The notes under the pieces were generated by a model that made no database searches, was not told the origin of the DNA, and saw only the letters and a list, made by a program, of their open reading frames with translations. Positions 5,076 to 47,490 of a stretch of 64,000 nt of DNA are shown piece after piece (the first letter of the stretch is position 1; each line of letters opens with the position of its first letter). The stretch is taken from contig DAOUJI010000107.1 of NCBI GenBank assembly GCA_034422875.1, forward strand, positions 6,260 through 70,259, given 5' to 3'. The DNA is from Dehalococcoidia bacterium. GTDB lineage: Bacteria > Chloroflexota > Dehalococcoidia > Lucifugimonadales > JAGWBF01. Made by a program: the position numbers and the translations under genes.

Positions 5076-6122
5076 ATGACCGAGTTGAAGCTCACGTCCC
5101 TGGCCCACTGCGCAGGTTGAGCCGCCAAGTTCAGCCCATCAGACCTGGTCCAGGTTCTGGAACAACTGCCCGTAATGTCCGACCCCAACCTGCTGGTGGG
5201 GACGGAGACCGGAGACGACGCCGGAGTCTACCGCATCGGGGACGACAAGGCCCTGGCGCTCACGGTGGACTTCTTCCCGCCAATAGTGGACGACCCCTTC
5301 AGCTACGGGGCCATCGCCGTCGCCAACTCCCTCAGCGACGTCTACGCCATGGGCGGGAAGCCGATATTGGGCCTGAACATTGTCGGCTTTCCTGTCGACC
5401 AGCCCAAGGAAATCCTGGGGGACATCCTCAAGGGCGGGTACACCAAGGCCCAGGAAGCAGGCTGCCTCATAGTGGGCGGCCATACGGTGGACGACGCGGA
5501 ACCCAAGTACGGCCTGGCCGTCGTGGGAATGGTCGAGCCGGGCAGCCAGATAACCAACGCCGGAGCCAAACCCGGGGACGCCCTCGTGTTGACCAAGCCC
5601 ATCGGCACCGGAGTGATCACCACTGCCGGAAAGCAGGGAGTTGCCAGCGAGCAGACCGTATCCAGGGCCGTAGCCGTGATGAGCGCGCTGAACCGGGCCG
5701 CGTCGGAGACGATGATGAAGGTGGGCGTGAACGCCTGCACCGACGTCACCGGATTCGGACTGATCGGCCACCTCAACTCCATGATGAAAGGCAGCGACGC
5801 CTCGGCTGTCATAGAGTTGTCGGCAGTGCCGGTCATCCCCGGGGTTTGGGAACTGCTGGAACAGGGGATAGCGCCTGGCGGCACTCACCGCAACCTGAAC
5901 AGCATGGAAGGTAAAGTGCATTGGGACGACTCCCTTACCGACAATGACAAGCTTCTTCTTTGCGACGCTCAAACGTCCGGAGGGCTGCTCATTTCCCTAC
6001 CCGCCGCCAAGTCTGACCAACTGTTGCGAGAACTAAACGCCGTTGGAGTGGCGGACGCTGCAGTGATTGGGCGCGTGTTAGCCAAAGGCTCCGGGCCAGA
6101 AACTATTCACGTAGCGCCCTAG
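5076..6122 (+). CDS. selD: selenide, water dikinase (selenophosphate synthetase), selenocysteine-containing form
   Basis: The ORF-track fragment 5175..6122 is clearly SelD (NLLVGTETGDDAGVY, DFFPPIVDDP, AMGG). In the same frame an ATG at 5076 with an AGGAG RBS gives MTELKLTSLAHCAG-[TGA 5118..5120]-AAKFSP. This aligns with the SelD N-terminal G(C/U)xxK loop. Confidence 0.85.
5140..5159 (+). promoter_or_regulatory. SECIS-like hairpin downstream of the selD UGA
   Basis: CAGACCU(G)-GGUC(C)-AGG-U-UCUG. This is a 7-8 bp stem with one bulged U and a GGUC-containing apical loop, starting about 20 nt after the UGA. Confidence 0.4.
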
Positions 6123-6166
6123 GCCCATTATCGGTTTCAAAGCCCGCTCGTTTGTTCAGAAAGCGT

Positions 6167-6586
6167 TTACGTAGGTAGCAATATCGACTTAAGACTGCCG
6201 GTACGCGCCACCGAATAGATGAAGGGACGCTCCGTATCCCGGGCTGCATCCAAGATTCGGTCATACGCTCTAGCAAAGCAACGCATGATTTCCCACTTGG
6301 GGGCCTCCGCACCCCAAAGATAAAAGCACCCTACCCCGTATTGCCTCAAAGCATATAGTTCTTGCTCTTTTTTATGGATAGACGAGTCCTGGGTGATGAC
6401 AAACCATCCTAGATTCCCGACGATACTGAGCCAAAGGTCATCGCCGCCTTCTTGATGTCTGTCGCTTAGAGGGAAATGGTCGAGATATGTCTCGATGCCA
6501 ATGGTTGCGCCGTCAACCCGTGGAGTGAGTAGTTTAAGAGCTTCAGGGATAGTCTTAGGTAGGTTCTTGTCCCAAAAGAATATCAT
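6167..6586 (-). CDS. PIN-like (DUF5615/Mut7-C-like) putative toxin
   Basis: MIFFWDKNLPKTIPEALK...GWFVITQD pattern is typical of DUF5615-type PIN-like proteins. There is an ATGA overlap with the upstream DUF433 gene. The region is low GC. Confidence 0.55.
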   Translation of the reverse strand: MIFFWDKNLPKTIPEALKLLTPRVDGATIGIETYLDHFPLSDRHQEGGDDLWLSIVGNLGWFVITQDSSIHKKEQELYALRQYGVGCFYLWGAEAPKWEIMRCFARAYDRILDAARDTERPFIYSVARTGSLKSILLPT

Positions 6587-7317
6587 GCGGAATTTTCTAT
6601 TTTGACTCCCTCGAATCTTAGCCCTTCAACCACTAGTTCCCTTGGGAGATCGAAATCACTCACGATCTCGTCAACTTCTTCACCGGCAAGATACCGCCCT
6701 TTCAGCGTCCATGTTGGAAGTCCTTGCACTGTGGGCGCACCGAAAGCCACCCTTGGGTCCAAGACCACTGGCGAGTTGCGGCCCGCAGGATGCCACCGTA
6801 GGGCTAGCTCATTCTCGTAGTCGAACTCCGCGAACTTCTCCCCTAGTAAATCGGTCCATGCCAACTGTCCACTAGAATCCGCTACTATCACCTTATTGAA
6901 CTCTTGGGAAGGGTTGAACTGCTGATAGTCCATGAGAACATGGAACCCCTCGGTTTTGAACTCCAACTGTACGAAGGGATATTCCGCACGGAATGTTTGT
7001 GCTACATATTCCTTGGCGGAGCGGATCCTGGGCATGGGCACTCCGATACTCCTGAAAAAAGCCACGAACGCGACTTCAACAAGCTGCATATAAGACAGAG
7101 GAGTTCTATGCTTCCGGAATTCCACAACAGGGCTGGTCCCTCGGCACCAGGAAGCTACTGTGTTTGGGTGGGCTCCTGAGTACCTTGCTGCATCGGATAC
7201 CTGATAGGCTGGAAGGAACAGCCGTCGGAACCAGGGTTCACTCTTTCTTTCATAGGTTTCTAACGCCATTTTACCTAGCTCTTCTTCATTGGTTCGAATT
7301 GTGTCCTGATCCGTCAC
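6583..7317 (-). CDS. DUF433 domain protein with N-terminal HTH-like extension (putative antitoxin)
   Basis: C-terminal VVLDPRVAFGAPTVQGLPTWTLKGRYLAGEEVDEIVSDFDLPRELVVEGL resembles DUF433. The start is uncertain: GTG at 7317 overlaps the translin stop, or ATG at 7269. Confidence 0.6.
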   Translation of the reverse strand: MTDQDTIRTNEEELGKMALETYERKSEPWFRRLFLPAYQVSDAARYSGAHPNTVASWCRGTSPVVEFRKHRTPLSYMQLVEVAFVAFFRSIGVPMPRIRSAKEYVAQTFRAEYPFVQLEFKTEGFHVLMDYQQFNPSQEFNKVIVADSSGQLAWTDLLGEKFAEFDYENELALRWHPAGRNSPVVLDPRVAFGAPTVQGLPTWTLKGRYLAGEEVDEIVSDFDLPRELVVEGLRFEGVKIENSA

Positions 7318-7970
7318 GGGCCGTCGGAGGCGGTGTTTTCCAGGGCGGCGAGCTTCTGCTCCAGGTCTCTCTGCCTGAGGGCCATGGTGAGGTCGCCCCT
7401 GGTGCGCTCCAGGATCGCACGCATTGCGTCGGTGGTTCGGCGAAGTCCTCCGGTCACCCCTTCGGGGAAGTCCACCGTCACCAACAGGTTGTATATCTCG
7501 TCCATGGTCTGCAGCAACTCTTCACACCGTGACGTGTCGTTCTTCCGCAGCGAGTCCAGGATGAACCGCCTCAACTCGCCAATCACCTCGCCCATGCCGT
7601 TCAGATATGGCGCCATTTCCACTCCCAGTGATTCAGGAGCGGGCACCGGACGGCCGGCTATGAGCGCCACGGTTATGTTGGCTTCGGTGAACTCCTTGCG
7701 AGCGTCGGCCAAAAACCCGGCGTAGTATATCTCCGGCCATTCGTCCAAGATGCTTTTGGACTCCGTGTGCCGCTGTTCGGCCTGTGCCAGCAGGTCCAGG
7801 GCTTGATCGAAGTCCAACCGGTGCGTCGCCCGGATGGAGTTGGCAGAGAGACGTATGACCTCACGGGATATTCTCAGGCCATTCTCTCTAGCCTGATGCT
7901 TGGCGGTGAACTCCTCCAGGGCGGCGTCCCTGACAGGACCCAGACGGTCGTCGTATGAGGAATCGCTCAT
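7314..7970 (-). CDS. translin-family protein (COG2178-like)
   Basis: Helical 218 aa protein with a YLNGMGEVIGELRR motif resembling the translin Y..G..D..GEL.R signature. Confidence 0.5.
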   Translation of the reverse strand: MSDSSYDDRLGPVRDAALEEFTAKHQARENGLRISREVIRLSANSIRATHRLDFDQALDLLAQAEQRHTESKSILDEWPEIYYAGFLADARKEFTEANITVALIAGRPVPAPESLGVEMAPYLNGMGEVIGELRRFILDSLRKNDTSRCEELLQTMDEIYNLLVTVDFPEGVTGGLRRTTDAMRAILERTRGDLTMALRQRDLEQKLAALENTASDGP

Positions 7971-9467: not shown

Positions 9468-10578
9468 CTAATATGCGTCGCCTTTGCCCATCGTGGAGCG
9501 CAGGTAGGCTTGTATGAAGCCGTCGATGTCTCCGTCCAGCGCCGCGTCTGCGTTGGAGGTCTGATGGTCCGTCCGGTGGTCCTTGACCAGCTTGTAGGGG
9601 TGGAGGACGTAGCTCCGTATCTGGCTTCCCCACTCGGTGGCCAGACGGTCACCCCTTAGCAGAGCGAGTTCCTGCGCACGCTCCTCCATCCTCTTCTCCA
9701 GAAGCCGGGCCATCAGTATTCGCATGGCGAACTCCCGGTTCTGGTATTGGGAGCGTTCGTTCTGGCACGCCACAACGATCCCCGACGGTAGATGGGTCAG
9801 CCGAACGGCGGAGGCCACCTTCTGGACGTTCTGTCCTCCTGGACCGCTGGACCTGAAGAAGTCCATCTTCAGGTCATCCGGCTTGATCTCAACTTCTTCC
9901 TCATCGTCGGCCACAGGCATCGTTTCGACCTGCGCGAATGACGTGTGGCGCAGGTGGTTGGCGTCGAAGGGTGAGAGACGCACCAGCCTGTGAACACCCT
10001 TTTCCGCTTTGAGATAACCGTAGGCGTATTTGCCTCCCACCTCAAGGGTTGCGCTCTTTATGCCGGCCTCCTCACCGTAGGAGGTGTCCAGCACCTGGGC
10101 CGCCCGCCCCTGGTTTTCAGCCCAACGGAGATACATGCGCAGCAACATCTCGGCCCAGTCCTGGGACTCGGTGCCGCCCGCACCTGAGTAGACGGTGACG
10201 ATGGCTGGACGGTCATCGTAGGGGCCGGACAGGGTCAGCAGGAACTCCTGGCGTTCCAACTCTTCCGAAAGCTCGCGACACTCGCTCCGAAGCTGTTCTT
10301 CCAGAGTGTCGTCAGTTTCCGCGAGGGCCAACTCCACCAGTTCCAGCAGCGAACCGGCGCTCTGCTCCAGTCCCCGCCAGGTGTCGACTGTGTCCTTCAA
10401 CCGGGCGAGACGCTGCATCACTCTTTGGGCTTCCTGGGGATTGTCCCAAAACGAGGCTGCTCCGGCTTCTTTCTCAAGCCGGTCTACCTCGGTCTCTTTG
10501 GCCGGGACGTCAAAGACGGTCCAAGGCTCCGGCGATCCGCTGGGTCATCTCGATAAGCTCAGCCCTGAGGTCTTGCAT
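9468..10578 (-). CDS. prfB: peptide chain release factor 2, requires programmed +1 frameshift
   Basis: Frame 0 reads MQDLRAELIEMTQRIAGALDRL then TGA. After CTT TGA C, the +1 frame continues DVPAKETEVDRLEKEAGAASFWDNPQEAQRVMQRL... into ORF 9468..10421, which contains SPF and GGQ motifs. AAGGAG RBS precedes the ATG at 10578. Confidence 0.9.
10509..10515 (-). promoter_or_regulatory. prfB +1 frameshift site CTT TGA C
   Basis: The reverse strand reads ...GAC CGT CTT TGA CGT CCC. This is the canonical RF2 autoregulatory slippery site. Confidence 0.85.
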
Positions 10579-10588
10579 CCGCAGCTCC

Positions 10589-11281
10589 TTATGTCCGCGC
10601 GGCCAGTTTAGGCGGCCTGCCCGCAGCGGCGTTATGTGCATTTCTCGTAGTTTCCGGCAGCCGAAATTTGTTGCAGACGGACAGCGTCCACTCAACCGCA
10701 CAGTCCAACTCTATCATATGTCCTACGGACACGAACACGGGACTGACCCCCGTCCTGGTCCTAACTGCCATTCCAATAACTTCACCCTTGTGCATCAGCG
10801 GCGTCCGTGAACCCCGTTCCTGCCCCAATTCGGCATACTCTCCCACCAGTATGGACTTGGCGCAGCCGATGGTTGGGGTCTGGGCTACCAGACCGATATG
10901 GCAGGCGATGCCGAACCGCCTGGGATGCGCAGCTCCGTGGCCGTCCACAATAATCAGGTCGGGTTCGACGCTCAACCCTTCCAAAGCCATCGCCAGCGCC
11001 GGGGTCTCCCTGAATGAGAGAAGTCCAGGCACATAGGGCATCGACGGGACCATCCTGGCAATTGATGAATCCACCGGCTCCAATTCTGGGAACGCCAACG
11101 CCACTGCGGCGGCGGTGACAACTCCGTCGGAGTCAGGAGCGGACATATCGAGACCAACCACGTAGCGCACGTCAGCCAACCGTGGACATCCGGACGCGAA
11201 AACCTGCGGGGCCAGCAGCTTTTGCATCTCCCGGGCCTCGCCAGGGGTGACATCCCAGGAATGGAGGGTTCGCAGTTCCAT
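10589..11281 (-). CDS. nfi: endonuclease V
   Basis: VVGLDMS...YVPGLLSFRE.P...LIIVDGHG..HPRRFG.ACH.G pattern of Nfi. Confidence 0.85.
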   Translation of the reverse strand: MELRTLHSWDVTPGEAREMQKLLAPQVFASGCPRLADVRYVVGLDMSAPDSDGVVTAAAVALAFPELEPVDSSIARMVPSMPYVPGLLSFRETPALAMALEGLSVEPDLIIVDGHGAAHPRRFGIACHIGLVAQTPTIGCAKSILVGEYAELGQERGSRTPLMHKGEVIGMAVRTRTGVSPVFVSVGHMIELDCAVEWTLSVCNKFRLPETTRNAHNAAAGRPPKLAART

Positions 11282-11302
11282 TCCGGAATTATAGCGCCGG
11301 GG

Positions 11303-11893
11303 CTACAGGTCCATTCGCAGGTCGACGACTCTGGAAAGAGCCGCTACGACCAGTGCGCTTCTTATGTTCCCATCCAAGATGGCTTGTTTGACCTGGAGCA
11401 GCGGCATGGTCTCGACTCGAATGTCCTCACCCATGCTGGGGTCGGGGTCATGGGTCTGGACGCATCCCCGGGCCAGCCAGTGGTGTACCAGGTTGTTGTG
11501 CACCGCCGGGTTGGGCTCGTGGGAACCCAGGTACGCCCAGTCAGAGGACGTATACCCCGTCTCCTCCAGAAGCTCTCGTTGGGCCGCGTGACGGTGGTCC
11601 TCACGCTCCATTACCGACCCTCCAGGTATTTCCAACGTCACTTCACCTGTCCCGAACCTGTATTGGCGCACCAGCACCAAGCGTTCATTGGGAGTCAGAG
11701 CCACTACACTGCACCAGTCGGGACTTTCCAACACGATGGCGCGCCGCTCCACGAAGTTACGGGGATTGACGACCTGATCAAAGCGGACTTGAAACAGGGG
11801 CATGTCCGGTCCATGTTCACTGCTCAAAACGTTCCAAGGAGCGGGCGGAGGTTGGCGGTCGGGGTCGTGGCTGGACCGATTGTCACGGCTCAC
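11303..11893 (-). CDS. NUDIX hydrolase (ADP-ribose pyrophosphatase-like)
   Basis: Nudix box GG.....E....AAQRELLEETG. GTG start. Confidence 0.8.
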   Translation of the reverse strand: MSRDNRSSHDPDRQPPPAPWNVLSSEHGPDMPLFQVRFDQVVNPRNFVERRAIVLESPDWCSVVALTPNERLVLVRQYRFGTGEVTLEIPGGSVMEREDHRHAAQRELLEETGYTSSDWAYLGSHEPNPAVHNNLVHHWLARGCVQTHDPDPSMGEDIRVETMPLLQVKQAILDGNIRSALVVAALSRVVDLRMDL

Positions 11894-11905
11894 GGGGATG
11901 GGTCC

Positions 11906-13600
11906 TCAAACGGTTTCCGAGGGCCGAAAGTCCACGACCATCAGCTCCATAATGGGAGTGTTTCCGACGCGTCCAGCGCCCACGGTGTACACCACGTCCA
12001 CCCTGGACGTACCGGCTTCCCACTTATCGGCCTGCCTAAAGGCCAGGGCGTCCCACACCACCCTTCCCTCTTTCAGTCTTAGTTTCATGTGCTGACCCTG
12101 GGCGCCCATCGTGCGGACATGAGCGGCCTCCAGATTTCGGGTCAGGAACGTAGGGGCCGGGTTGTCCACTCCGAAGGGCCCCAGGTCCTGCACCCACTGG
12201 AAGGCGGCGCCGGGGATGGTGGACACCGGAGCCTCTGCGTCTATGTGCAGCGGAGCGGCTCCTTCAATGTGCTCCGACGCCTCGTCGGAGATCAAGCCCA
12301 GCCTGGATTCCAGCTGGGCCATGTTGAAAGAGGGCATCACAAACCCGGCTGCTTGCCCATGGCCTCCGTACCGTGTGAAGAGGTCTGCGCAGGGCTTTAA
12401 CGCTTCGTTGAGGACGTGAAATTCTGGAACGCTTCTGGCGCTGGCCCTCACTACGTCCCCGATCTGTGAAACGACTATGGCAGGCCGGGAGAATTCGTCT
12501 ACCAGCCTGCTCGCCACCAGCCCGGCTATGCCAGGCGCAACCCACTCCCCGCCGGCCAGAATGACCGACGGCAGGTCCCGCCTGCTCAGGGTCTGCTCTT
12601 TTGCCCTGGCAAAGGAGTCCAGGGTCATCTGCTGGCGTTCCCTGTTCAGCTTTTCCAGGTGGGAAGCGAGGCTGGCGGCTTCATCCTTGGAAGCAGTCGT
12701 CAAGAGTTTGTAGGCCAGCGACGCATGGTCCAATCTTCCTGCGGCGTTTAGCCTTGGAGATATCATGAAGGCAATGCCATCTACGTCAATTCCGGTGGGA
12801 TCGATGCCGGCCTGTTTGTACAGCGCCTGGAGGCCCGGTCTGCGTGTGGTCTGGAGGCGCTTGAGCCCCTCTTTGACGAAACGCCTGTTCTCGCCCACCA
12901 GAGGCACCAGGTCCGCAACCGTGCTCAACGCCACCAGTTCGAGCAGGTCGCGGCTCCAGTCGCGGCCCAGGTCGTTGTACAGGGCTTCCACCAGTTTGAA
13001 GGCCAGGCCCGCCCCCGAAAGCTCGGTGAAAGGATATTCCGAGTCCACCAGCTTGGGATCGATTATGGCGACAGCAGGCGGAATCCTGTCAGGAGGCAGG
13101 TGGTGGTCCGTGACAATCACGTCCATTCCCAGTTCGCCCGCCAGAACTATCTCATCCAGGGATGTGATGCCGCAGTCAACCGTGATGATAAGTGACACGC
13201 CCGCCTGTTTGAGGGCCATGACGGCTTCAGCGTTCAGACCGTGTCCTTCGTCCTCTCGGTGGGGGATGTAAGGCGCGACCGTCGCCCCCAGCTCCTCCAA
13301 TCCTTGGGCGGCTATGGCTGTTCCGGTGACTCCATCCACATCGAAATCGCCGAAAACGCCGATAGTCTCACCGGATGTGAGGGCTGTGCGGAGCCTGGCA
13401 ACGGCGGGACCCATGCCGGGGAGAAGCGCCGGGTCATGGAAGGCCGGGTTCATGTAGTCCGCGAGGCTCTGCTCGGAGTCGATGCCTTTGTTCGCCAGCA
13501 GTTGGGTCACTAGAGGGGGCAAGTGAGATAGGCCGTTAAGAGCCTTGGATACGGGAGGCCGGACCCTCCACACCCTGCGTCCACCCCCGTTGACGTTCAT
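11906..13600 (-). CDS. recJ: single-stranded-DNA-specific exonuclease RecJ
   Basis: DHH motifs (GDFDVDGVTG, VTDHH) and a DHHA1 region. Length is 564 aa. Confidence 0.9.
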   Translation of the reverse strand: MNVNGGGRRVWRVRPPVSKALNGLSHLPPLVTQLLANKGIDSEQSLADYMNPAFHDPALLPGMGPAVARLRTALTSGETIGVFGDFDVDGVTGTAIAAQGLEELGATVAPYIPHREDEGHGLNAEAVMALKQAGVSLIITVDCGITSLDEIVLAGELGMDVIVTDHHLPPDRIPPAVAIIDPKLVDSEYPFTELSGAGLAFKLVEALYNDLGRDWSRDLLELVALSTVADLVPLVGENRRFVKEGLKRLQTTRRPGLQALYKQAGIDPTGIDVDGIAFMISPRLNAAGRLDHASLAYKLLTTASKDEAASLASHLEKLNRERQQMTLDSFARAKEQTLSRRDLPSVILAGGEWVAPGIAGLVASRLVDEFSRPAIVVSQIGDVVRASARSVPEFHVLNEALKPCADLFTRYGGHGQAAGFVMPSFNMAQLESRLGLISDEASEHIEGAAPLHIDAEAPVSTIPGAAFQWVQDLGPFGVDNPAPTFLTRNLEAAHVRTMGAQGQHMKLRLKEGRVVWDALAFRQADKWEAGTSRVDVVYTVGAGRVGNTPIMELMVVDFRPSETV

Positions 13601-13615
13601 CCGGCCGAGGATGCT

Positions 13616-14866
13616 CTAGCTCCGGTCCACCGCTCCGAAGATGAGGACCGAATTATGGCCCCCAAACCCGAAAGAGTTGCTCATCGCATAACGTATCTGG
13701 GCTTCACGGGACTTGTTCGCCGTGTAGTCCAGGTCGCAGTCAGGGTCTTGGTCGTCCAGGTTGATGGTGGGCGGCAGGACTCCGTCTCGGATTGCCATAA
13801 TCGTGGCTGACGCTTCCAGGGCGCCTCCGGCGCCAAGCAAATGGCCAGTCATGGACTTGGTGGAGCTTACGGGAGTCCGGTGGGCGTCCTCACCCAACGC
13901 CAGCTTGATGGCCAGCGTCTCCTGCCTGTCATTCAGAGGCGTAGATGTGCCGTGGGCGTTTATGTACCCGATTTCTTCGGGCGCCACTCCCGCCCTCTCG
14001 ATAGCCGTCTTCATAGCCCTGGCGGCGCTTACGCCGTCGGGATGGGGCTCAGTCAGGTGGAAGGCGTCGGAGGTGGCGGCGTAGCTGACCAGTTCCGCCA
14101 GCGGCTCCGCCCCCCGCTTTTCCATGTTCTCTTCGCTCTCGAGGACCAGAATGGCTGCGCCCTCTCCCATTACGAAACCGTCCCGAGCGGTGTCAAAGGG
14201 GCGACTGGCCTTCTGAGGCTCCTCGTTGCGCTTGGACAGGGCATGGAGCGAATTGAATCCCGCGACGGCAATGGGGCATATCGGAGCTTCGGCTCCTCCC
14301 GCCAGGACCACGTCGGAGTCTCCCCGGCGTATCATCTCCCACGCCTGCCCAATCCCGTCGGCGCCGCTGGAGCACGAGGACACGGCACAGAAGTTGTGGC
14401 CCATCGCCCCGGACAGCATGGAAACCTGTGCCGACCCCATGTCGGCCAGCATCATGGGCACCAGGAACGGAGACACCCTGCGCGGGCCTTTTTCCTTCAG
14501 CGTCTCCACCTGTTGGGACAGGGTGATGACGCCTCCAATGCCGCTTCCCACGATGGAGGAGAGGCGATAGGGGTCCATCTCGTCGGGCTTGAGCCGAGCC
14601 TGGGCCATAGCCTGGGCCGAGGCGACCGCCGCGAACTGGGCGAACCGGTCCATCCGTCTGGCTTCTTTCTTCTCCAGATAGTCGGTCGGCTCGAACCCCT
14701 TTACCTCGGCGGCGAAACGGGTTTCGAATCCCTCCGGGTCGAATGCGGTGATGGAGTCGACGCCGGACACGCCGCCCACCAGATTGTCCCAAGAAGTGGA
14801 AAGGTCCAGACCGAGGGGGCTAATGACTCCGATGCCGGTTACGAATACTCTCGTCGACAACCACAC
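13616..14866 (-). CDS. fabF: beta-ketoacyl-ACP synthase II
   Basis: RVFVTGIGVISPLG N-terminus, active-site context SSCSSG, INAHGTSTP and GFGGHNS motifs. Confidence 0.9.
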   Translation of the reverse strand: MWLSTRVFVTGIGVISPLGLDLSTSWDNLVGGVSGVDSITAFDPEGFETRFAAEVKGFEPTDYLEKKEARRMDRFAQFAAVASAQAMAQARLKPDEMDPYRLSSIVGSGIGGVITLSQQVETLKEKGPRRVSPFLVPMMLADMGSAQVSMLSGAMGHNFCAVSSCSSGADGIGQAWEMIRRGDSDVVLAGGAEAPICPIAVAGFNSLHALSKRNEEPQKASRPFDTARDGFVMGEGAAILVLESEENMEKRGAEPLAELVSYAATSDAFHLTEPHPDGVSAARAMKTAIERAGVAPEEIGYINAHGTSTPLNDRQETLAIKLALGEDAHRTPVSSTKSMTGHLLGAGGALEASATIMAIRDGVLPPTINLDDQDPDCDLDYTANKSREAQIRYAMSNSFGFGGHNSVLIFGAVDRS

Positions 14867-14906
14867 ACCTTCCCGTTGCGTCTCGCCGTCGTAACGACAC
14901 CTGGGT

Positions 14907-16703
14907 TTATGCAGTCTCCCGTTTGAATTCGGACAACCTCATCATGGCCTCGTTCACTTCGTTGATACGGACCGAGATAGTGTCGCTTATTTCGCGTCCC
15001 GTCTGGGCGATTTGGATTCTGTATCTGCCCAGGGCCTCACTGGCCTCGTTGATGCGTTGGGAAATCACGTCGGGGAGTTCCCGTCCGGTTTCCGACAGCT
15101 GGATGCGGTACTTTGCGAGAGTTTCGCTTACTTCGTTCATCCGGGCGGATATGGCCTCGGGCAGCTCTTTGGAGGAATCAGACAGCGTACGCAGAGCTTC
15201 GCTGAACTCCCCAATGCGGAGTGATACAGTCCCGCTCAACTCTCGTCCGGCCGACTGCCTCTTGGACTTGGGGGACCTGATAAGGCGGAATATCCGCTCG
15301 TACAGCTTGTCTATTGGGTTCAGCTTTGCGTGGTACCTATTGAAGAGGTCTCTGGACTCTTCCAGGGACCATCGTTCGTCCTGGTGGACGAACTGACGTC
15401 CGGTGTAGAGTTCGTAGGGCCTCATGCCGTACTCGGCGAGCACGTTGCCGCGCTCATCGGTGGGCAGCGGGTTCCCCTTGGCGTCCAAGGGCACCAGCGA
15501 GTCCCAGTTGGACGTGGCGGGCAGCGGGGTCAGTAGATTCGCCGTCTGGTACTTGCTCACCTTCGTAACCCAGTCAGCCATGTCCATGATTCCCTGTTCC
15601 GTGTCGTAGGGAAGCCCGATGATGGTCATCGCCACCAGGGTGAAGCCCATCTTGTTGAGCTGCACCAGGTCTTTGTGGACCTGACCGGGCTCCTGGCGCT
15701 TTCGCACCAGCTTCAAATTCTCGGCGTTGTCGGACTCGACTCCCACGTAGAGCATTCGAATGCCGGCTTCATACATGGCGTCAGCCAGTTCGGGGTCCTG
15801 GCCGATCTCCGCCCGTGTCTGGCAAATCATATACATGTCGTCGGTGTGGCCCTTCCAGTTCTCCAGCCGGGCCAGACGCTCGTTTCTGTACTTCACTGCC
15901 CTGAGGGGAGGAGGATGGAGGTCGTCGGAGATGAAGACGCTGAACCGTCCGTCCCTGGCAGTGTGGATAAGGCCGTCGGAGGCCAACTGCCTGAGTTGGC
16001 GTAGCCTCTTGATTTCAGTTTCCCGGTTGATCAGGCGATACCCCAGGAACTGTTGTATCACCTGGCAGTAGGTGCACTTTTCGGTGCAACCCCGGACGGT
16101 TTCCAGCACTCCGCCTGCCATGGGCATCTGAGGCGTCAGGTCCCTTATGGCCCTGAAGTCGGGCAGAGGAATGAAGTCCGGCTCTATGACCCCCTTCCGG
16201 GGAGTCTGAATCAATTGCCCCTCTCTGACAAAGGATATCCCTGGTATCTTCCTCAGCCTTGTAACGGGCACTGGGCCTTTGTGCTCCAGGAGCATGTCGC
16301 AAAGGGGGCCTATGATGTCTTCCCCTTCGCGATTGACGATGATGTCAAAGTGTCCTTCCCGGATGGCTTCCTCCGGGAGAGGGCTCATCTGGGGTCCGCC
16401 ACCTATGGTCACCAACTCTGGATGGAATTGCTTGGCAAGCCTGCCGATTTCATAGCCGCGTGGGGCCTCGTTAATCAGGGCGGTGATCATGAGGACGTCA
16501 ACGCCCTCCAGGTCCTTGTCAGGGTCCATAGGACCGCTGCGGTCCTCGAACCATATCTCTGTGTCGTAGAGGAAAGGACCTTTCCACTGCTTTAACGCGG
16601 CGGATAGAAAGAGCATGCCCTGCCGCGGGATGGCAACGAACTCGAAGTTGCCTCCCTGGGAGCTGGGTTGGACAAGAACCACTCTTTTGAACTTAGACTT
16701 CAT
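14907..16703 (-). CDS. B12-binding-domain radical SAM protein with C-terminal tandem-repeat extension
   Basis: N-terminal Rossmann-like VVLVQPS...DVLMITA segment, radical SAM cluster motif CTEKCTYC, then about 113 aa of repeats at the C-terminus. Lies 40 nt upstream of fabF on the same strand. Confidence 0.8.
   Translation of the reverse strand: MKSKFKRVVLVQPSSQGGNFEFVAIPRQGMLFLSAALKQWKGPFLYDTEIWFEDRSGPMDPDKDLEGVDVLMITALINEAPRGYEIGRLAKQFHPELVTIGGGPQMSPLPEEAIREGHFDIIVNREGEDIIGPLCDMLLEHKGPVPVTRLRKIPGISFVREGQLIQTPRKGVIEPDFIPLPDFRAIRDLTPQMPMAGGVLETVRGCTEKCTYCQVIQQFLGYRLINRETEIKRLRQLRQLASDGLIHTARDGRFSVFISDDLHPPPLRAVKYRNERLARLENWKGHTDDMYMICQTRAEIGQDPELADAMYEAGIRMLYVGVESDNAENLKLVRKRQEPGQVHKDLVQLNKMGFTLVAMTIIGLPYDTEQGIMDMADWVTKVSKYQTANLLTPLPATSNWDSLVPLDAKGNPLPTDERGNVLAEYGMRPYELYTGRQFVHQDERWSLEESRDLFNRYHAKLNPIDKLYERIFRLIRSPKSKRQSAGRELSGTVSLRIGEFSEALRTLSDSSKELPEAISARMNEVSETLAKYRIQLSETGRELPDVISQRINEASEALGRYRIQIAQTGREISDTISVRINEVNEAMMRLSEFKRETA
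14910..15248 (-). repeat. four tandem 26-30 aa (about 87 nt) coding repeats at the 3' end of the radical SAM gene
   Basis: GRELSGTVSLRIGEFSEALRTLSDSS / KELPEAISARMNEVSETLAKYRIQLSET / GRELPDVISQRINEASEALGRYRIQIAQT / GREISDTISVRINEVNEAMMRLSEFKRETA. Confidence 0.8.
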
Positions 16704-16936
16704 CTTGTCTCCACCTAGCGACTTTCGCTGAATTATCGTCCTGTTGTTGGCTCGCCATCAGATTACATCCTGTTCCACGGCTAGACTTCGCCCATCCTAC
16801 TTGTTGAATTATACATGACAGTCAATGGGAATTGATACAAGAAACGGCAATTGGCGAAAACTGCTTCGTCATAGAAACCTCGGAGCGGGACTGTAGGGCG
16901 AGGTGGAACAGAAATACGTCCTTTGCAGGGTTCGGA

Positions 16937-20709: not shown

Positions 20710-21576
20710 ATGAGATTCGGAATATTCGTCTTTGACTCGGCCCGCAACATGGACCCGGCGACTCTGGCCAGGAGGGCCGAGGAGTTGGGATTCAGTTCCT
20801 TTTGGATTCCGGAGCACACCGTGCTCCCTGTGCATCCTTCCAAGGGTCCAAGCGGCTCGACCACCGCCGAGTTCCCCGAGTCTTTCTACCACATCTCCGA
20901 CCCGGTGATTTCCCTGGCGCGGGCGTCGGGGGCCACGTCCACCATCAAGCTGGGCACTGGAATCCTGCTGGCCGCCGAACGCAACCCGTTGCTGACCTCC
21001 AAAAGCCTTGCAACTCTGGACCGTTTGTCCGGGGGACGTCTGCTGGTGGGCATTGGCACGGGCTGGTCGCCAGAGGAGTACGCCGCCATGGGCGGGGACT
21101 TCCAAAACCGCTACTCACAGCTGAGGGAGCACGTCCAGGCGCTCAAGACCATCTGGAGCGAAGACGAACCGGAGTTTCACGGCCGCTTCTACAACTTCCC
21201 TCCGGTCCGGGTTTATCCCAAGCCCGTCCAGACGCCACATCCGCCCATCTTCATAGGGGGCGGCCTGGGTAGATTAGCGGAGCGAGTTTTCAAACGCATC
21301 GTCAATTGGGCCAACGGCTGGGTCCCTGTGATAACTGAAATCGAGCAGGTGCGGCAGGGACGGGAGTCTTTGACCCGCCTCGCCGAGGAAGCCGGCAGGG
21401 ACCCCGCGTCCATACCCGTATACGCCATGACCCGAGGCCGGGCGTTTAGAACGAGCGACGACGTGGCTCGTCTGGAAGAGGCCGGGGCCGACGAGGTGGT
21501 CTTCTGGCTCCAGAGCCCTTACGACGATGACAACGCGTTAGTCGAGCTTGAGAACCTAGCCCAGAGCGTGATGTAG
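20710..21576 (+). CDS. LLM-class (luciferase-like) F420-dependent oxidoreductase
   Basis: MRFGIFVF....D...LARRAEELGFSSFWIPEHTV and GTG....ER.P pattern of the LLM family. Confidence 0.8.
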   Translation: MRFGIFVFDSARNMDPATLARRAEELGFSSFWIPEHTVLPVHPSKGPSGSTTAEFPESFYHISDPVISLARASGATSTIKLGTGILLAAERNPLLTSKSLATLDRLSGGRLLVGIGTGWSPEEYAAMGGDFQNRYSQLREHVQALKTIWSEDEPEFHGRFYNFPPVRVYPKPVQTPHPPIFIGGGLGRLAERVFKRIVNWANGWVPVITEIEQVRQGRESLTRLAEEAGRDPASIPVYAMTRGRAFRTSDDVARLEEAGADEVVFWLQSPYDDDNALVELENLAQSVM

Positions 21577-21631: not shown

Positions 21632-22504
21632 ATGGCGATTCCAGTTGGAGTATTCGTACTGGACACAGGAGCTGCTACGGACGTGGCCGTTCTGGCCAAG
21701 CGGGCCGAGGAGCTGGGATTCGCCTCCTTCTGGGTGCCTGAGCATCCAGTGATACCTGTGACAAGATCCACTCCGTACCCAGGCGACCGGAGCGGAGTGA
21801 TTCCCGATGGGTACTACTGGATGGCCGATCCATGGATAACCCTGGCCCGCGCTTCGGGGACCACCAGCAACATCCTTCTGGGAACGGCGATATGCATCCT
21901 GCCAGAGCACAACCCGCTCCTTACGAGCAAGCAGGTCGCCACTCTCGACAATCTGTCGGGAGGCCGCGTCATTGTCGGCCTGGGAGTCGGTTGGCTCAAG
22001 GAGGAGTTGGAGCTCCTGGGCGGCAACTTTGAACGCAAGGGGCCACAGTCGGTGGACAACATCCGGGCGCTTAAGGAACTCTGGACCAAAGACGAAGCGG
22101 AATATCACGGCGAGTTTTACGACTTCCCCGCTGTAAGGGTCTTCCCAAAGCCCACCCAGAAGCCCCACCCTCCCATCGTGTTCGGCGGCGGGCTGACGCC
22201 GAAGAACTCCGAGATTATTTTTCGGCGCATTGTCCGGGTCGGCGACGGCTGGCTTCCGGTCCTTCATGAGCCGGAGCCCATCGAGGACGGCAGGCGCCGC
22301 CTAGACGAAAAGGCCAAAGAAGCCGGACGTGACCCATCGTCCATCAAGATATACGCCATGGGGCGGCCAGGCGCCTTTGGGACGAGAGACGACATCAAAG
22401 CCCTTGAAAACGCCGGAGCCGACCACGTAGTCCTTTGGATGGACAACACCAAGGGAGAAGCCGCCCTGAACGAGCTGGAAGAGCGGGCGCGAATAGCGCT
22501 CTAG
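21632..22504 (+). CDS. LLM-class F420-dependent oxidoreductase (tandem paralog)
   Basis: Collinear similarity to 20710..21576 (LAKRAEELGFASFWVPEHPV...). GAGGTGA RBS. Confidence 0.8.
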   Translation: MAIPVGVFVLDTGAATDVAVLAKRAEELGFASFWVPEHPVIPVTRSTPYPGDRSGVIPDGYYWMADPWITLARASGTTSNILLGTAICILPEHNPLLTSKQVATLDNLSGGRVIVGLGVGWLKEELELLGGNFERKGPQSVDNIRALKELWTKDEAEYHGEFYDFPAVRVFPKPTQKPHPPIVFGGGLTPKNSEIIFRRIVRVGDGWLPVLHEPEPIEDGRRRLDEKAKEAGRDPSSIKIYAMGRPGAFGTRDDIKALENAGADHVVLWMDNTKGEAALNELEERARIAL

Positions 22505-22536: not shown

Positions 22537-22872
22537 ATGGCATCTAGGGTCTACTACGACGCCGACTGCCGCCTTTGTTCAGGCGGAGTCAGCCTGGTTT
22601 CGCGGGCGGGTGTGCTGGGAGAAGTAGACTGGACGCCGATCCAGTCAGGCTCCTGCCCGGAAGGCGTCTCAGGCGAAGACTTGGACCGTGCAATGCACCT
22701 GGAAACGCCGTCGGGGGTGTACAGCGGGTTCGATGCCGTCAGGCGCATAGCCTTAAGGACTCCTGTCCTGTGGCCGTTTGCCCTGGTGTTCTGGCTGCCC
22801 GGCATGGGCGCGCTCGGCTCTTGGGCTTATGCTCTTGTCGCCCGCAACCGGAGGCGGATGTGGGGCCGCTAG
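22537..22872 (+). CDS. thiol-disulfide oxidoreductase DCC-family protein (DUF393)
   Basis: N-terminal YYDADCRLCSG (DxxCxxC) and a hydrophobic C-terminus. The last ~45 codons are duplicated at 25111..25248. Confidence 0.75.
   Translation: MASRVYYDADCRLCSGGVSLVSRAGVLGEVDWTPIQSGSCPEGVSGEDLDRAMHLETPSGVYSGFDAVRRIALRTPVLWPFALVFWLPGMGALGSWAYALVARNRRRMWGR
22726..22851 (+). repeat. 126-bp direct repeat, copy 1 (3' end of the DCC gene)
   Basis: Aligns base for base with 25111..25236, with about six mismatches by eye. The first ~85 nt are nearly identical. Confidence 0.85.
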
Positions 22873-22880
22873 GGACGATC

Positions 22881-23864
22881 CTAAGATTCGAAACCAGGCA
22901 GCAATGAACCATTGGTTTTGCTTTTAGTATTAGGCAAAGCAGGCTTTGGGTTTCTTTTCTGAATGGTGAACATGGTACTCGCAGCACTTGCTTTTGCTTC
23001 CGCTAGCTTAGCAGTTGCTTTGTTAACGTATTCCAAGTTGATCTCATAGCCAATATACCTACGGTTCGCGCGTATTGCAGCTTCGGCGGTCGTTCCTGAA
23101 CCGATGAAAGGGTCCAACACTATATCACCTACGAAAGAATACAAATTGATGAGACGGAGGGGCAGTTCAACCGGGAAGGGAGCAGGATGATTGGCCTTCT
23201 TTGCTCTTGCAGCAGGAAATCTCCAGATACTCTTGGTATACTCTAAGAAATCATCGCGGCCTATGCTGTTTTGGCGAATGGGGTGGCGTTTGAATGTTCC
23301 TTTGCAAAACACGAGGATGTATTCATGGACATCGCGCAGGACAGGATTGCTGGATGACTTCCAACTCCCCCAAGCAGACGACGAACCTGCACTTGCCCCC
23401 TTGTCCCATATAATCTCTCCGCGCATGTAGAATCCGCAATCCTGGGCAATCTCTATGATGTATGCGTGTAGCGGAATGTAGGGCGTTCGGCCAACATTGG
23501 CGATATTGATGCACGCGCGGCCCCCTTCCACAAGAGTCCGATAAGTTTCTTGTAAGACTTGCGAAAGCAGGTCCCGATATTCTGAGAGAGAAAGGTCGGC
23601 ATCGTATTCTTTTCCAACATTGTATGGCGGTGAGGTAATCATCAAATGTATAGAGTCATTTGGCAAGCGTGACATATCCCTGCTGTCTGCGCCATATATG
23701 ACATCCAACTCATTTGGAACATTTTCACTGTACTTTCCGTTCTCACTGTTTCTGGGCCTCAAGTCTTCATATAGTCTTTTTCCATAAAACTTACTCGAGT
23801 CGTGACCCGTACGACTCACTGTTCCGAATGACGACGTTTCCGTTCTCTTCACAGTGTGTCCCAT
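22881..23864 (-). CDS. site-specific DNA methyltransferase, beta-class (N4-cytosine or N6-adenine)
   Basis: Motif IV ITSPPY precedes motif I LDPFIGSGTT, which is the beta-class order. Low GC. The start is uncertain: ATG at 23864 (16-nt overlap with the upstream gene) or ATG at 23924. Confidence 0.85.
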   Translation of the reverse strand: MGHTVKRTETSSFGTVSRTGHDSSKFYGKRLYEDLRPRNSENGKYSENVPNELDVIYGADSRDMSRLPNDSIHLMITSPPYNVGKEYDADLSLSEYRDLLSQVLQETYRTLVEGGRACINIANVGRTPYIPLHAYIIEIAQDCGFYMRGEIIWDKGASAGSSSAWGSWKSSSNPVLRDVHEYILVFCKGTFKRHPIRQNSIGRDDFLEYTKSIWRFPAARAKKANHPAPFPVELPLRLINLYSFVGDIVLDPFIGSGTTAEAAIRANRRYIGYEINLEYVNKATAKLAEAKASAASTMFTIQKRNPKPALPNTKSKTNGSLLPGFES

Positions 23865-24502
23865 AACTGTATCCAACGATGGTACAAGGCCCGCTCGACC
23901 AATAGTGACGGATCCCGGTTCCATTCAATAGGAAGAGACTGAGTGTTCTGATGGGTTTGTAGTAGATGCATCGCGTCTCTTGAGATTTCAACGCCGCGAG
24001 GATTGGTTCCCCTTGGTGGCACTTTCGTATAACCAGAAATGGTCAATGCGCGCATTACCTCTTCTTGAACCTGTTGGGGAAACAGAAACATCCTACCAGT
24101 TTTGCCCCACAAGACATTGACATAGAGCAAGTGGCTGGAAGGAGCGTACGTGCCGAGGAAATCGTCAATCTTGTCCCAATCCACCGTCCACACCAGTTTT
24201 ACACCACCCAGTCCTCCTGTTGATTTAGTCTTGATGGACACAGGGTGGTTGTTTACTAGAACATCTAGTGCTGGTGAAGTACTTGGAGGAAACTCAACGC
24301 TGTCAACTCCGTACACATACATGAACAGAGCAATTAGCACCCGCTCCCGTGCAGTGCCGACCTCCATGCCCAGCCGTTTGCCTCTCCTATTCTCCAACTC
24401 TACCATATTAAACAAGGTAGGTAGAACACGTTGGATTCTCTCGCTATATGGAGAAGAGAATAACTCGACCCCAAATGGTGATTCGGCTACGGAGGTGTTC
24501 AT
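23849..24502 (-). CDS. candidate type II restriction endonuclease (cognate of the methyltransferase)
   Basis: Immediately upstream of and overlapping the MTase gene. Possible PD-(D/E)XK-like element ALDVLV...SIKTK. No family recognised with certainty. Confidence 0.45.
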   Translation of the reverse strand: MNTSVAESPFGVELFSSPYSERIQRVLPTLFNMVELENRRGKRLGMEVGTARERVLIALFMYVYGVDSVEFPPSTSPALDVLVNNHPVSIKTKSTGGLGGVKLVWTVDWDKIDDFLGTYAPSSHLLYVNVLWGKTGRMFLFPQQVQEEVMRALTISGYTKVPPRGTNPRGVEISRDAMHLLQTHQNTQSLPIEWNRDPSLLVERALYHRWIQLWDTL

Positions 24503-24674
24503 GGCATCGTAGTTGTCAGTGTATCAAGTTAATGGTTGCTTTTTACCCGCATCTGCACCATTCATCGACACGTACGAAAATGATTGAGTGACTACAGGCT
24601 CCTTCTGAATTTGTTTCCATATCTGGCGGCCTCTCTGCCGGGCCTCTTCAGTGAGAAAACTCTCCCAGGTTCGC

Positions 24675-25028
24675 TCATACCCCACCTCGTCCCCCGCGAC
24701 CTCCACCACCGCGGTGTTTATAACTGTCCGCCCAATAGAGCTCCTTGGATTCCATGTATCGCTGGGTCATCATCTCTGATGCCGTCTTGCGCTGTTCAGG
24801 TGGACTTGGTTTGTAACCGCTTTCTTGGACGACCTTCTTAAAAACTTCCTGTGCCTGCTTCAAGGATCGGAACGAGCCCAACGTTTCGCCTTTTTGAAGA
24901 ACGTGATACTTCCCATCGTCCGGTGTATTTTCCGTATATCTTTCGATGGATAGGTTTAGGTCTGGGATATACTGGCGATAGGAGTCGGTGGCCAAAATGT
25001 CGCCTCCGGCGGCATAATTCCAGCGCAT
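24675..25028 (-). CDS. hypothetical protein with Gly/Arg-rich tail
   Basis: 117 aa ORF in the low-GC islet ending in KHRGGGGRGGRGGV. No recognisable domain. Confidence 0.4.
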   Translation of the reverse strand: MRWNYAAGGDILATDSYRQYIPDLNLSIERYTENTPDDGKYHVLQKGETLGSFRSLKQAQEVFKKVVQESGYKPSPPEQRKTASEMMTQRYMESKELYWADSYKHRGGGGRGGRGGV

Positions 25029-25110
25029 TATAGCAGCACGTCAGTGAGGAGAACATCCTCTGATGTCGGTCAATTTTGGGAGGTTAAACCTCCCAAGGGA
25101 ACCGGCGAAA

Positions 25111-25236
25111 GGGTTCGATACCGTCAGGCGCATAGCCTTAAGGACTCCTGTCCTGTGGCCGTTTGCCCTGGTGTTCTGGCTGCCCGGCATGGGCGCCCTT
25201 GGCTCGCGGGCCTATGCTCTTGTCGCCCGCAACCGG
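25111..25236 (+). repeat. 126-bp direct repeat, copy 2
   Basis: See 22726..22851. Confidence 0.85.
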
Positions 25237-25248
25237 CCCCGTTCTTAG
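25111..25248 (+). pseudogene. displaced 3' fragment of the DCC-family gene
   Basis: Encodes GFDTVRRIALRTPVLWPFALVFWLPGMGALGSRAYALVARNRPRS*, matching the C-terminus of 22537..22872. There is no upstream homologous coding sequence. Its stop overlaps the ribBA stop in convergent orientation. Confidence 0.7.
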
Positions 25249-26450
25249 CAGTGCCAGAGGGTGTGGCCCAGCTTGTTCCGCTTGGTCCGCTTGTAGTGGC
25301 GGTTTTCCTCGTTGACCTCGGTCTCTATGGCGCGCTGTTCGACTATGTCAAAGTCGTACCCCAGCAGACCGACGATCTTACGGGGATTATTGGTCAGCAG
25401 CCGGATTTTATTCACGTTCAGGTCCCGCAGTATCTGGGCGGCGATTCCGTAGTGGCGATGGTCTGACTCGAAGCCCAACATCTCATTGGCCTCCACAGTG
25501 TCCATGCCGGTGTCCTGGAGAGAGTAGGCCTTAATCTTGTTGTGCAGCCCGATTCCCCGCCCCTCCTGGCGCATGTAAAGGAAGACGCCCTTGCCTTCCT
25601 GGCCAATTATCTCCAGCGCGAGCATCCGCTGGTCTCCACAGTCACAGCGGATGCTGCCGAGGACGTCGCCAGTAAGGCATTCGCTGTGGATGCGGACCGA
25701 AATGGGCTCGTCGGGCTCCCATTCACCCAACACCAGGGCTACGTGCTCACCGGGCTCTATTGGACTGGTGTAGGACTTGACTTCGAACTCTCCGAATATA
25801 GTGGGAAGACGGGCCTCAGCTATTTCCTCGATGTGCCTCTCGTGTCGTCTACGGTAGGCGATGATTTGTGCGATCGTGATTATCTTGATGCCATGGAGTT
25901 CTGAAAACTTTTCGAGTTCGGACATGCGGGACATGGTCCCATCGGGGTTCATGATTTCGCAAACGACGCCGGAGGGGTACATTCCCGCGATGCGGGCCAG
26001 GTCCACGATGGACTCGGTGTGGCCTGGGCGGACCAGCACTCCTCCGGGCTGGTAACGGAGGGGGAAGATGTGGCCAGGGCGGGCGAAGTCATCGGGTTTG
26101 GCGTCCGGGTCTATCATGGCCAGGATCGTCTTGGCCCGGTCGGATGCCGAAATGCCGGTGGTGGTGCCTACGTTGTAGTCGACGGATACGGTGAAGGCAG
26201 TTCCGTGCCTGGCGCTGTTATACCCGTCAACCATCAGCGGCATGTTGAGCTGGTCCAGCCTCTCTCCCAGGACGGGCATGCACAGCAACCCGCGGGCTTC
26301 GGTGACCATGAAGTTGACGGCATCGGGAGTCATGGCCTCCGCGGCCATGACTAAGTCGCCCTCGTTCTCCCGTTTCTCGTCGTCTACGACGATGAGAAAC
26401 TTACCCTGACGTATGTCCTCCAGGGCTTCTTCAACGCTGGATAGAGCCAT
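25245..26450 (-). CDS. ribBA: bifunctional 3,4-dihydroxy-2-butanone-4-phosphate synthase / GTP cyclohydrolase II
   Basis: DDEKRENEGDL (RibB) and CLTGDVLGSIRCDCG (RibA zinc site). Confidence 0.9.
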   Translation of the reverse strand: MALSSVEEALEDIRQGKFLIVVDDEKRENEGDLVMAAEAMTPDAVNFMVTEARGLLCMPVLGERLDQLNMPLMVDGYNSARHGTAFTVSVDYNVGTTTGISASDRAKTILAMIDPDAKPDDFARPGHIFPLRYQPGGVLVRPGHTESIVDLARIAGMYPSGVVCEIMNPDGTMSRMSELEKFSELHGIKIITIAQIIAYRRRHERHIEEIAEARLPTIFGEFEVKSYTSPIEPGEHVALVLGEWEPDEPISVRIHSECLTGDVLGSIRCDCGDQRMLALEIIGQEGKGVFLYMRQEGRGIGLHNKIKAYSLQDTGMDTVEANEMLGFESDHRHYGIAAQILRDLNVNKIRLLTNNPRKIVGLLGYDFDIVEQRAIETEVNEENRHYKRTKRNKLGHTLWHC

Positions 26451-41179: not shown

Positions 41180-41205
41180 GTAGGGGCAACCCTCGTGGTT
41201 GCCCT
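41180..41205 (+). repeat. GC-rich palindromic element
   Basis: GTAGGGGCAACC CTCGT GGTTGCCCT. Confidence 0.55.
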
Positions 41206-41229
41206 GTTCCCCGACTGGACGACACCTTT

Positions 41230-41255
41230 GGGCGACCACAAGAGTCGCCCCTACA
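41230..41255 (+). repeat. GC-rich palindromic element
   Basis: GGGCGAC CACAAGA GTCGCCCCTACA. Confidence 0.55.
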
Positions 41256-41323
41256 GGTTTCGCTGGCGGTCCGTGGCGCCCCATCGCCGCCTTCTCTCGA
41301 CGGTGGAGAAGGGACAATATGCC

Positions 41324-47438: not shown

Positions 47439-47490
47439 CCAACTTGGCCACGGCGCATCGGTCGGGGTGACGTTCCGGTCCCAAACTATA

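Follow-up and report, generated by a model that had tools for sequence, protein, structure and literature searches.

Restriction-modification (R-M) systems that lie in short inserts between long direct repeats were described as "R-M insertion with long target duplication" by Furuta, Abe and Kobayashi (2010, NAR; PMC2853133), after Nobusato et al. (2000, Gene). In this class the insert holds both a restriction (R) and a modification (M) gene, is shorter than 20 kb, is bounded by repeats (more than 30 bp) both of which align with one copy at the empty site, and contains no other mobile element (PMC2853133). The published cases have repeats of 46 to ~420 bp and come from several phyla; their mechanism was stated to be unknown, and a life cycle was proposed, but untested, in which the unit inserts, is amplified via its repeats and is then released (PMC2853133). 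Here we analyze a locus of this kind in a 64,000-nucleotide stretch (the window) of an uncultured Dehalococcoidia genome (assembly GCA_034422875.1, contig DAOUJI010000107.1, positions 6,260 to 70,259, forward strand), where an islet with an R-M cassette lies between two copies of the 3′ end of a gene for a DCC1-like thiol-disulfide oxidoreductase (DCC).

The closest described relative of the cassette itself is the ThaI system of Thermoplasma acidophilum. ThaI, of the PD-(D/E)XK type, cuts CG/CG; Glu54, Asp82 and Lys93 form its active site, with Ser91 in the acidic position, Met47 intercalates, and its cognate protector is an N4-methyltransferase (PMC3025569).

The window locus is an example of an already described phenomenon. 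All four features that define the long-target-duplication class (PMC2853133) were found: an R and an M gene, an insert of 2,259 nt, a 126-nt repeat with a single copy in the related genome L003, and no mobile-element genes in the open reading frames (ORFs) screened. As in the published cases, R and M stand alone in a short insert without mobility genes and with a GC content below that of the flanks, and the repeat overlaps the 3′ end of a host gene. Unlike in those cases, part of the "duplication" is not the recipient's own sequence (it has a foreign tail and derived alleles), and the repeat boundary and an adjoining 86-nt end module are common to cassettes with different nucleases in different genomes; the host, an uncultured member of the Dehalococcoidia, also belongs to a group not represented in the published survey. 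What this locus adds to the known class is therefore one "duplication" arm that is imported, and an arm and promoter-like module that are reused with different nucleases. With modest confidence, we favor the reading that a three-gene R-M cassette, seated in a repeat-bounded slot in DCC together with an imported 3′ end, was moved by host homologous recombination.

The DCC slot and its replacement 3′ end

The DCC gene (22537–22872, plus strand; PF04134, 7e-21 over the full profile) encodes 111 aa and is intact, with a chimeric 3′ end. Its codons 64–105 (22726–22851, plus strand), part of that 3′ end, form the left copy of a 126-nt direct repeat, the right copy of which (25111–25236, plus strand) is an orphan DCC fragment. 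The two copies agree at 120/126 bases (95%); five of the six mismatches cluster at 22809–22824, the remaining one is at a left-hand site, and the identical core shared by both copies is 76 nt long. A 63-nt core of the repeat occurs exactly twice within the window and not once in 100 shuffles, and a third or an inverted copy is absent from the window. The insert between the copies (2.26 kb) has a GC content of 0.44–0.52 (~0.48) versus ~0.60 on both sides, and all of its cargo genes lie on the minus strand. Beyond the insert, the orphan fragment runs into a native DCC tail, PRS and stop (25237–25248, plus strand), whose stop codon (25246–25248) overlaps that of ribBA, the right-hand host flank (25245–26450, minus strand; PF00926, 9.6e-84; PF00925, 6.6e-67). 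An earlier note, made from the letters of this DNA, had described a repeat of about 126 nt with about six mismatches, a lower-GC insert of about 2.2 kb and an orphan fragment whose stop overlaps the ribBA stop, and each of these readings holds; it had also taken convergent DCC and ribBA genes as the probable ancestral arrangement and proposed to look for empty sites in relatives.

Such a site is found, clean, in L003, which is ~91% identical to the window on both sides of the islet. L003 has one copy of the 126-nt segment, no islet, and a 108-aa DCC gene (6001–6327) that abuts ribBA (6324–7529), the two stops overlapping by 4 nt as they do in the window.

A second relative, L021, has a 2.1-kb insert between DCC and a radical-SAM gene on a 634-kb contig of a metagenome-assembled genome (MAG). 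This insert is flanked by a 144-nt direct repeat (92% identical) that begins at the same nucleotide as the window repeat, and its cargo is a methyltransferase, 57% identical to the window enzyme and in the opposite orientation, together with an HNH_2 nuclease. At the same site in L020 (5334–6659) lies a decayed cassette of the L021 type: its HNH gene, 83% identical to that of L021, is truncated by an internal deletion, and it has neither a methyltransferase nor a right repeat copy, so that pop-out by recombination between repeats is no longer possible. The slot is therefore occupied in three genomes, by two kinds of cargo, and empty in at least five.

The second shared boundary is the 86-nt end module (25025–25110, minus strand), which is identical to L021 7375–7460 at 64/86 positions without gaps and of which L020 keeps a degenerate copy (6577–6659). 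Read on the minus strand, just upstream of the cargo, it contains a palindrome (GGGAGGTTAAACCTCCC, 25078–25094, read directly from the sequence and partly kept in L021 and L020), a TTGACC and an extended −10 element (TGCTATAAT, 25035 to 25027). The conserved TGnTATAAT is what suggests that the module is a promoter; a consensus promoter scan did not call it. Taken together, the 3′ end of DCC is a clade-specific slot, bounded by a direct duplication of DCC codons 64–105 and by the promoter-like end module, and both of these bounds also surround a different cassette in L021. The occurrence of ThaI-type and HNH-type systems at one chromosomal position in related genomes resembles allelic R-M substitution (PMC2853133). 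Unlike in that case, the alternative cassettes share repeats and a promoter-like module and not host flanks only, and their methyltransferases are homologous yet oppositely oriented.

The mismatches between the two window copies reveal which of them is native. At the left-hand mismatch it is the left copy that has the L003 (host) base, whereas at all five right-hand mismatches the right copy matches L003; over the whole segment the right copy differs from L003 at 6/126 positions and the left copy at 10/126. Four of the five clustered changes are synonymous and one replaces Arg with Trp, and by comparison with L003 and outgroups the left copy is derived at no fewer than three of these five sites. 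The Trp (W96) is found in the intact DCC protein, and Arg is found in all nine full-length homologues that have the segment as well as in the window's own orphan copy. Since the derived substitutions sit in the functional gene copy, the functional copy is the odd one, the opposite of a duplication followed by decay of the orphan.

The same holds for the end of the gene. Past the repeat the left copy continues as AGGCGGATGTGGGGCCGCTAGGGACG (RRMWGR, stop at 22870–22872), and this foreign-type tail plus 8 nt (22852–22880, plus strand) abuts the end of the methyltransferase gene. Its AGGCGGATGTGGGGC matches the DCC tail CGGCGGCTGTGGGGC of L005/L022 in register at 13/15 positions, and its TAGGGACG matches TAGGGGCG of the same genomes, whose tail CGGCGGCTGTGGGGC-TAGGGGCG encodes RRLWG and a stop; with the native tail, CCCCGTTCTTAG, it is not alignable. 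A binomial estimate over the nine bases outside Arg codons, of which 8/9 match, gives a chance of ~4e-4 per comparison. The right tail is L020/L006-like up to the ribBA junction. To judge from these alignments, the left tail is a true DCC end that belongs to a different allele type, and the native DCC 3′ end remains as the orphan fragment abutting ribBA. The foreign tail and derived alleles on the left and the native allele in the orphan thus show the cassette to have been carried in with a replacement 3′ end, a feature that the earlier note had likened to integrative elements and that the comparison bears out. In L021, the left copy has the allele of L023, its nearest relative, at four informative repeat sites and the right copy has that of L020, with no site showing the opposite, which is what one would see if the element had brought the body of the right copy with it.

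Two other origins were considered and rejected. A plain target duplication followed by drift does not account for a functional copy that is the aberrant one and that ends in a bona fide DCC tail of another allele type. A duplication tied to an inversion, as in the Helicobacter model, does not fit copies that are direct, that flank the cassette only and that have no third or inverted counterpart in the window.

DCC homologues at 78–91% identity form only ~10 clusters, with lengths of 108–121 aa, and a genome scan located DCC homologues in Dehalococcoidia MAGs. Look-ups with the exact DCC and ribBA proteins matched one scaffold, the metagenome scaffold from which the window derives (NGUY21-1_SAMN17524321_METAG-scaffold_686). 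In the more distant relatives L004/L023, L005/L022, L006, L011, L020 and L021, DCC is followed by a block of radical-SAM, KAS, RecJ, NUDIX and EndoV genes, which in the window is inverted and lies upstream (10905–16864). The window and L003 share the inverted, upstream block, and in both DCC abuts ribBA (the positions concerned in the window are 22857/25246). As the block order differs between these relatives and the window, rearrangement in the clade has also had a breakpoint at the DCC 3′ end; at the other edge, a fragment of a DDE transposase is present in L004. A truncated DCC homologue, P0130, was considered as a possible second insertion near codon 59 but proved to be a frameshift in a long-read contig (3x) whose gene arrangement is the ordinary one. 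Directly upstream of DCC in the window lie two luciferase-like (PF00296) genes (20710–21576 and 21632–22504) with an 82-nt stretch that is 76% identical; this is ordinary tandem paralogy, present in all relatives.

The restriction-modification cargo

The islet is an intact three-gene Type II R-M cassette consisting of a ThaI-family endonuclease, an SPPY methyltransferase and a conserved protein of 106 aa. The endonuclease gene (23849–24502, minus strand, 217 aa) matches the ThaI family of PD-(D/E)XK Type II restriction endonucleases (PF15514) at 2e-48 and 165 bits (cut-off 25) over profile positions 9–201 of 203, and aligns with the ThaI structure (PDB 3NDH) over 195 residues at an E-value of 2.5e-43. 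Its M46, E53, D80 and S89-I90-K91 align with ThaI Met47, Glu54, Asp82, Ser91 and Lys93, all of which are kept. As in the Thermoplasma acidophilum enzyme (3NDH, PMC3025569), then, the intercalating Met and the catalytic Glu, Asp and Ser-x-Lys are present, and the cassette endonuclease is predicted from this likeness to recognize CGCG and to cut it as CG/CG. The earlier note had suspected a Type II R-M pair, had pointed to a possible D...SIK element and had proposed profile searches of both enzymes; the pair and the D...SIK element stand (D80 and S89-I90-K91), and its verdict that the endonuclease family was unrecognized gives way to ThaI.

The partner is a beta-class SPPY DNA methyltransferase (22881–23924, minus strand; PF01555, N6/N4 type, 2.1e-45), the longest ORF of which has 347 aa. 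A gene caller places the start at 23864, which gives 327 aa and a 16-nt overlap with the endonuclease gene, and the motif TSPPYNVG can be read directly in the translation. It is predicted to be an N4-cytosine methyltransferase acting within CGCG; an amino-methyltransferase partner is consistent with the N4-methyltransferase reported for ThaI. Unlike the ThaI system, this one has a bacterial host, a distantly homologous endonuclease whose specificity is a prediction, and a third gene.

The composition of the window gives a single, indirect sign of the predicted cleavage specificity. In host DNA of the whole window CGCG occurs 201 times versus 329 expected from trinucleotides (ratio 0.61), whereas the palindrome GCGC, of the same composition, is not depleted (331 versus 325 expected, 1.02); within the cassette CGCG is not depleted either (12 versus 8.5 expected). 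The scarcity of CGCG in the host fits a long exposure of the lineage to CGCG-specific restriction.

The third gene (24675–24995, minus strand) encodes 106 aa with a C-terminal RGGGGRGGRGGV tail, with a probable TTG start at 24995 preceded by a Shine-Dalgarno sequence, GGAGG, at 25007–25003. The ORF in which it is read has 117 aa and belongs to a family of ~106-aa proteins: 62 homologues were found, all lacking Pfam domains, and in the family alignment the length and the C-terminal RGGGGRGGRGGV are kept. In every context looked up (L012, L013–L017 and L018) the gene adjoins a ThaI nuclease and a PF01555 methyltransferase, with gene orders and genomic locations that vary among these contexts. 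The 106-aa protein is probably an uncharacterised third component of ThaI-type systems. The protein has no family match in Pfam, NCBIfam or PHROG. A predicted model has four strands plus helices and a disordered RGG tail; a search of its fold against PDB gave no match and a PDB profile search gave a weak match to LidA only. Family members are located at L012 7001–7321, L013 6001–6321 and L018 415–735, and the RGGGGRGGRGG C-terminal tail of the family is invariant.

Several other readings of this region were set aside. The protein is not a helix-turn-helix (HTH) controller of the C-protein kind: its predicted model has strands and helices and no HTH, and it has no family match. The 117-aa and 61-aa ORFs are not one frameshifted gene, since by the family alignment the Gly/Arg tail is the true conserved C-terminus. 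ATG 25028 was rejected as the start of the small gene because it overlaps the conserved −10 box and because homologues begin at the position of TTG 24995. The 61-aa ORF (24524–24709), which matches no family and overlaps the small gene at its end, is probably spurious, so that of the one or two small ORFs that the earlier note had counted one is real (24675–24995) and the other probably falls away.

Gain and loss of the cassette

Movement by host homologous recombination across the repeats is the most likely mechanism, we infer. The cassette would carry its own copy of the DCC 3′ end as a homology arm and need no dedicated recombinase. It would be gained by single-crossover integration of a circular or tandem form into a chromosomal DCC gene, or alternatively by double-crossover exchange with an older resident cassette; it would be lost by recombination between the two repeat copies, which would regenerate an L003-like empty site, and post-segregational killing by the R-M pair would oppose that loss. 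The partition of the six mismatches between the repeat copies is a crossover-type pattern.

The lack of mobility genes, remarked on by the earlier note, extends beyond the islet. The islet has no integrase, transposase or tRNA, and its three cargo genes do not encode a recombinase. The genes called over ~16.5–31.6 kb showed no recombinase domain, and neither did the remaining non-overlapping ORFs of the window, of 150 aa or more, that were scanned. No tRNA or Rfam family was found in the window, and there was no recombinase at the DCC site in the eight related genomes and contigs examined, a small sample (L003, L004/L023, L005/L022, L006, L011, L020 and L021). The layout matches the published class (PMC2853133); the earlier note had suggested that this may be a mobile R-M unit with an unknown or trans-acting mode of insertion.

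The nearest weakly transposase-like ORF is 18 kb off. It has 278 aa (43599–44435, minus strand), shows sub-threshold matches only to HTH_23 and to IS1/IS240 DDE transposases, and may be a degenerate insertion sequence (IS). Elsewhere in the window, ORFs at 4140–5000 (plus strand), 6583–7317 (minus), 44542–45012 (minus) and 47467–48192 (plus) have a markedly low third-position GC content (0.52–0.58 versus ~0.75 in their neighbors); among them are a DUF4357 protein and one that matches DUF433/HTH_66 weakly, and they may be further small foreign inserts. A sequence of ~80 nt between the CinA and DUF1385 genes (41180–41259) recurs in L003 at 401–475 and 10360–10440, in opposite orientations and at 82–90% identity; no Rfam family or tRNA matches it, and a small dispersed repeat is a possibility.

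No homologue of the endonuclease was found in plasmid and phage collections, and a scan of JGI metagenomes with a DCC profile gave only an unrelated match at 29% identity. The closest ThaI cassettes, 77% and 70% identical at the protein level and 72% and 67% at the nucleotide level, are located after an fdh-like gene and have neither the repeats nor the small gene, so they do not reveal the donor. The ThaI R-M family also moves by other routes. The earlier note had named islets in unrelated contexts without repeats as an observation that would count against its reading; related ThaI cassettes do occur in this way, and we regard the interpretation as supported. In L012 (5032–6135, a low-coverage, 4x long-read contig) a ThaI-family ORF is fused to, or directly follows, a DDE_Tnp_IS1595 transposase domain, which may mean that the same R-M family also travels with an IS, or may be a frameshift from assembly.

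Several observations weigh against movement by homologous recombination, or limit how firmly it can be held. Over its last 24 nt the window repeat shows no difference between the copies, and both have a T that is derived with respect to L003 and outgroups; this is unexpected for a single crossover with a donor ~15% diverged and would call for a closely related donor, for gene conversion, or for a mosaic built up by repeated recombination. The crossover intervals of the window (repeat nt 10–84) and L021 (nt ~70 to the tail) overlap, so a fixed core and a trans-acting site-specific enzyme keep a place among the explanations. The end module has diverged by 26% between the window and L021, which is comparable to or above the divergence of host genes; this makes an old slot, passed on vertically with gene conversion and repeated losses, a serious alternative. 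Neither a circular or tandem form, nor a donor genome, nor a near-identical cassette was found, the closest endonuclease being the one at 77% identity. The informative mismatch sites are few (six in the window and eight in L021), and because the sequence is a metagenome assembly a chimeric join across the 76-nt identical core has to be considered.

The alternative that survives best, although we think it unlikely, is a single ancient insertion that descended vertically, with losses via the repeats and gene conversion, in which only the cargo was swapped (HNH-type by ThaI-type) and the unit never moved between genomes. The repeat start and the end module are the same in the window and L021, as it predicts, the divergence of the module is in keeping with it, gene conversion would give the identical last 24 nt with their shared derived base, and the pattern in L003 fits excision equally well. 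It does not readily explain why the derived and non-synonymous changes sit in the functional left copy and not in the orphan, why the tails on the left and right are each like a different native allele in the clade, or why the right copy of L021 resembles L020 and its left copy L023. It also requires five or more independent losses and a change of gene order from type A to type B (in which DCC is next to ribBA) that broke exactly at the end of the orphan fragment, and it leaves a cargo GC of 0.48 that has not been ameliorated.

Less probable still is a non-autonomous, cis-mobilisable-like integrative element whose repeats would be the attL and attR of a tyrosine or serine recombinase acting in trans, from elsewhere in the genome or from a helper element. 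The likeness to integrative and cis-mobilisable elements that target gene 3′ ends is real: the repeats derive from a gene 3′ end, the gene is kept intact by the replacement 3′ end that the element carries, as in classical integrative elements, and an orphan native fragment lies on the far side. The left repeat boundary, moreover, is fixed in two genomes, and the crossover intervals of the window and L021 overlap at ~repeat nt 70–84, where a common core could lie. Unlike integrative elements, however, this one is accompanied by no integrase or excisionase, whether in the element, in the screened ORFs of the 64-kb window or at this site in related genomes, and none of the eight in that small sample carries there the related recombinase-bearing element that would be expected for a cis-mobilisable element. 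The homology of 126–144 nt, not a short core, far exceeds what a core site needs, and the published long-repeat R-M class (PMC2853133) likewise has no recombinase.

Finally, an assembly artefact, in which a type-B strain was joined to the cassette of a co-occurring related strain by two template switches within the 76-nt core, seems to us very improbable: the source is a short-read-style metagenome scaffold, and host-like outer and foreign inner parts are exactly what two such switches would produce, but the switches would have to be coordinated, some genome must really contain the join of the end module to DCC codon 64, and L021 shows the repeat-flanked architecture independently on one molecule.

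What the locus means for mobile R-M units

The entry of R-M systems that lack mobility genes and have long target duplications has been without explanation since 2000. This locus is unusually informative in that respect, since it combines an empty site in a close relative, an imported arm, and an arm and end module that are reused for a different nuclease in a second genome. Together, the empty site, the repeat polymorphisms with the foreign tail, and the reuse in L021 point to homology-driven insertion and cassette exchange and not to a true target duplication. The locus also draws attention to a third protein of ThaI-type systems, one that is conserved and uncharacterised.

A bolder and doubtful extension of homology-driven movement is that the DCC arm and the 86-nt module are the minimal backbone of an integrase-free, RecA-dependent cassette that shuttles R-M systems between related genomes, popping out as a circle via the repeats and re-entering any genome that bears DCC. 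If this were true, such a backbone would be natural evidence for the "virus-like life cycle" that has been proposed, and never shown, for long-repeat R-M units.

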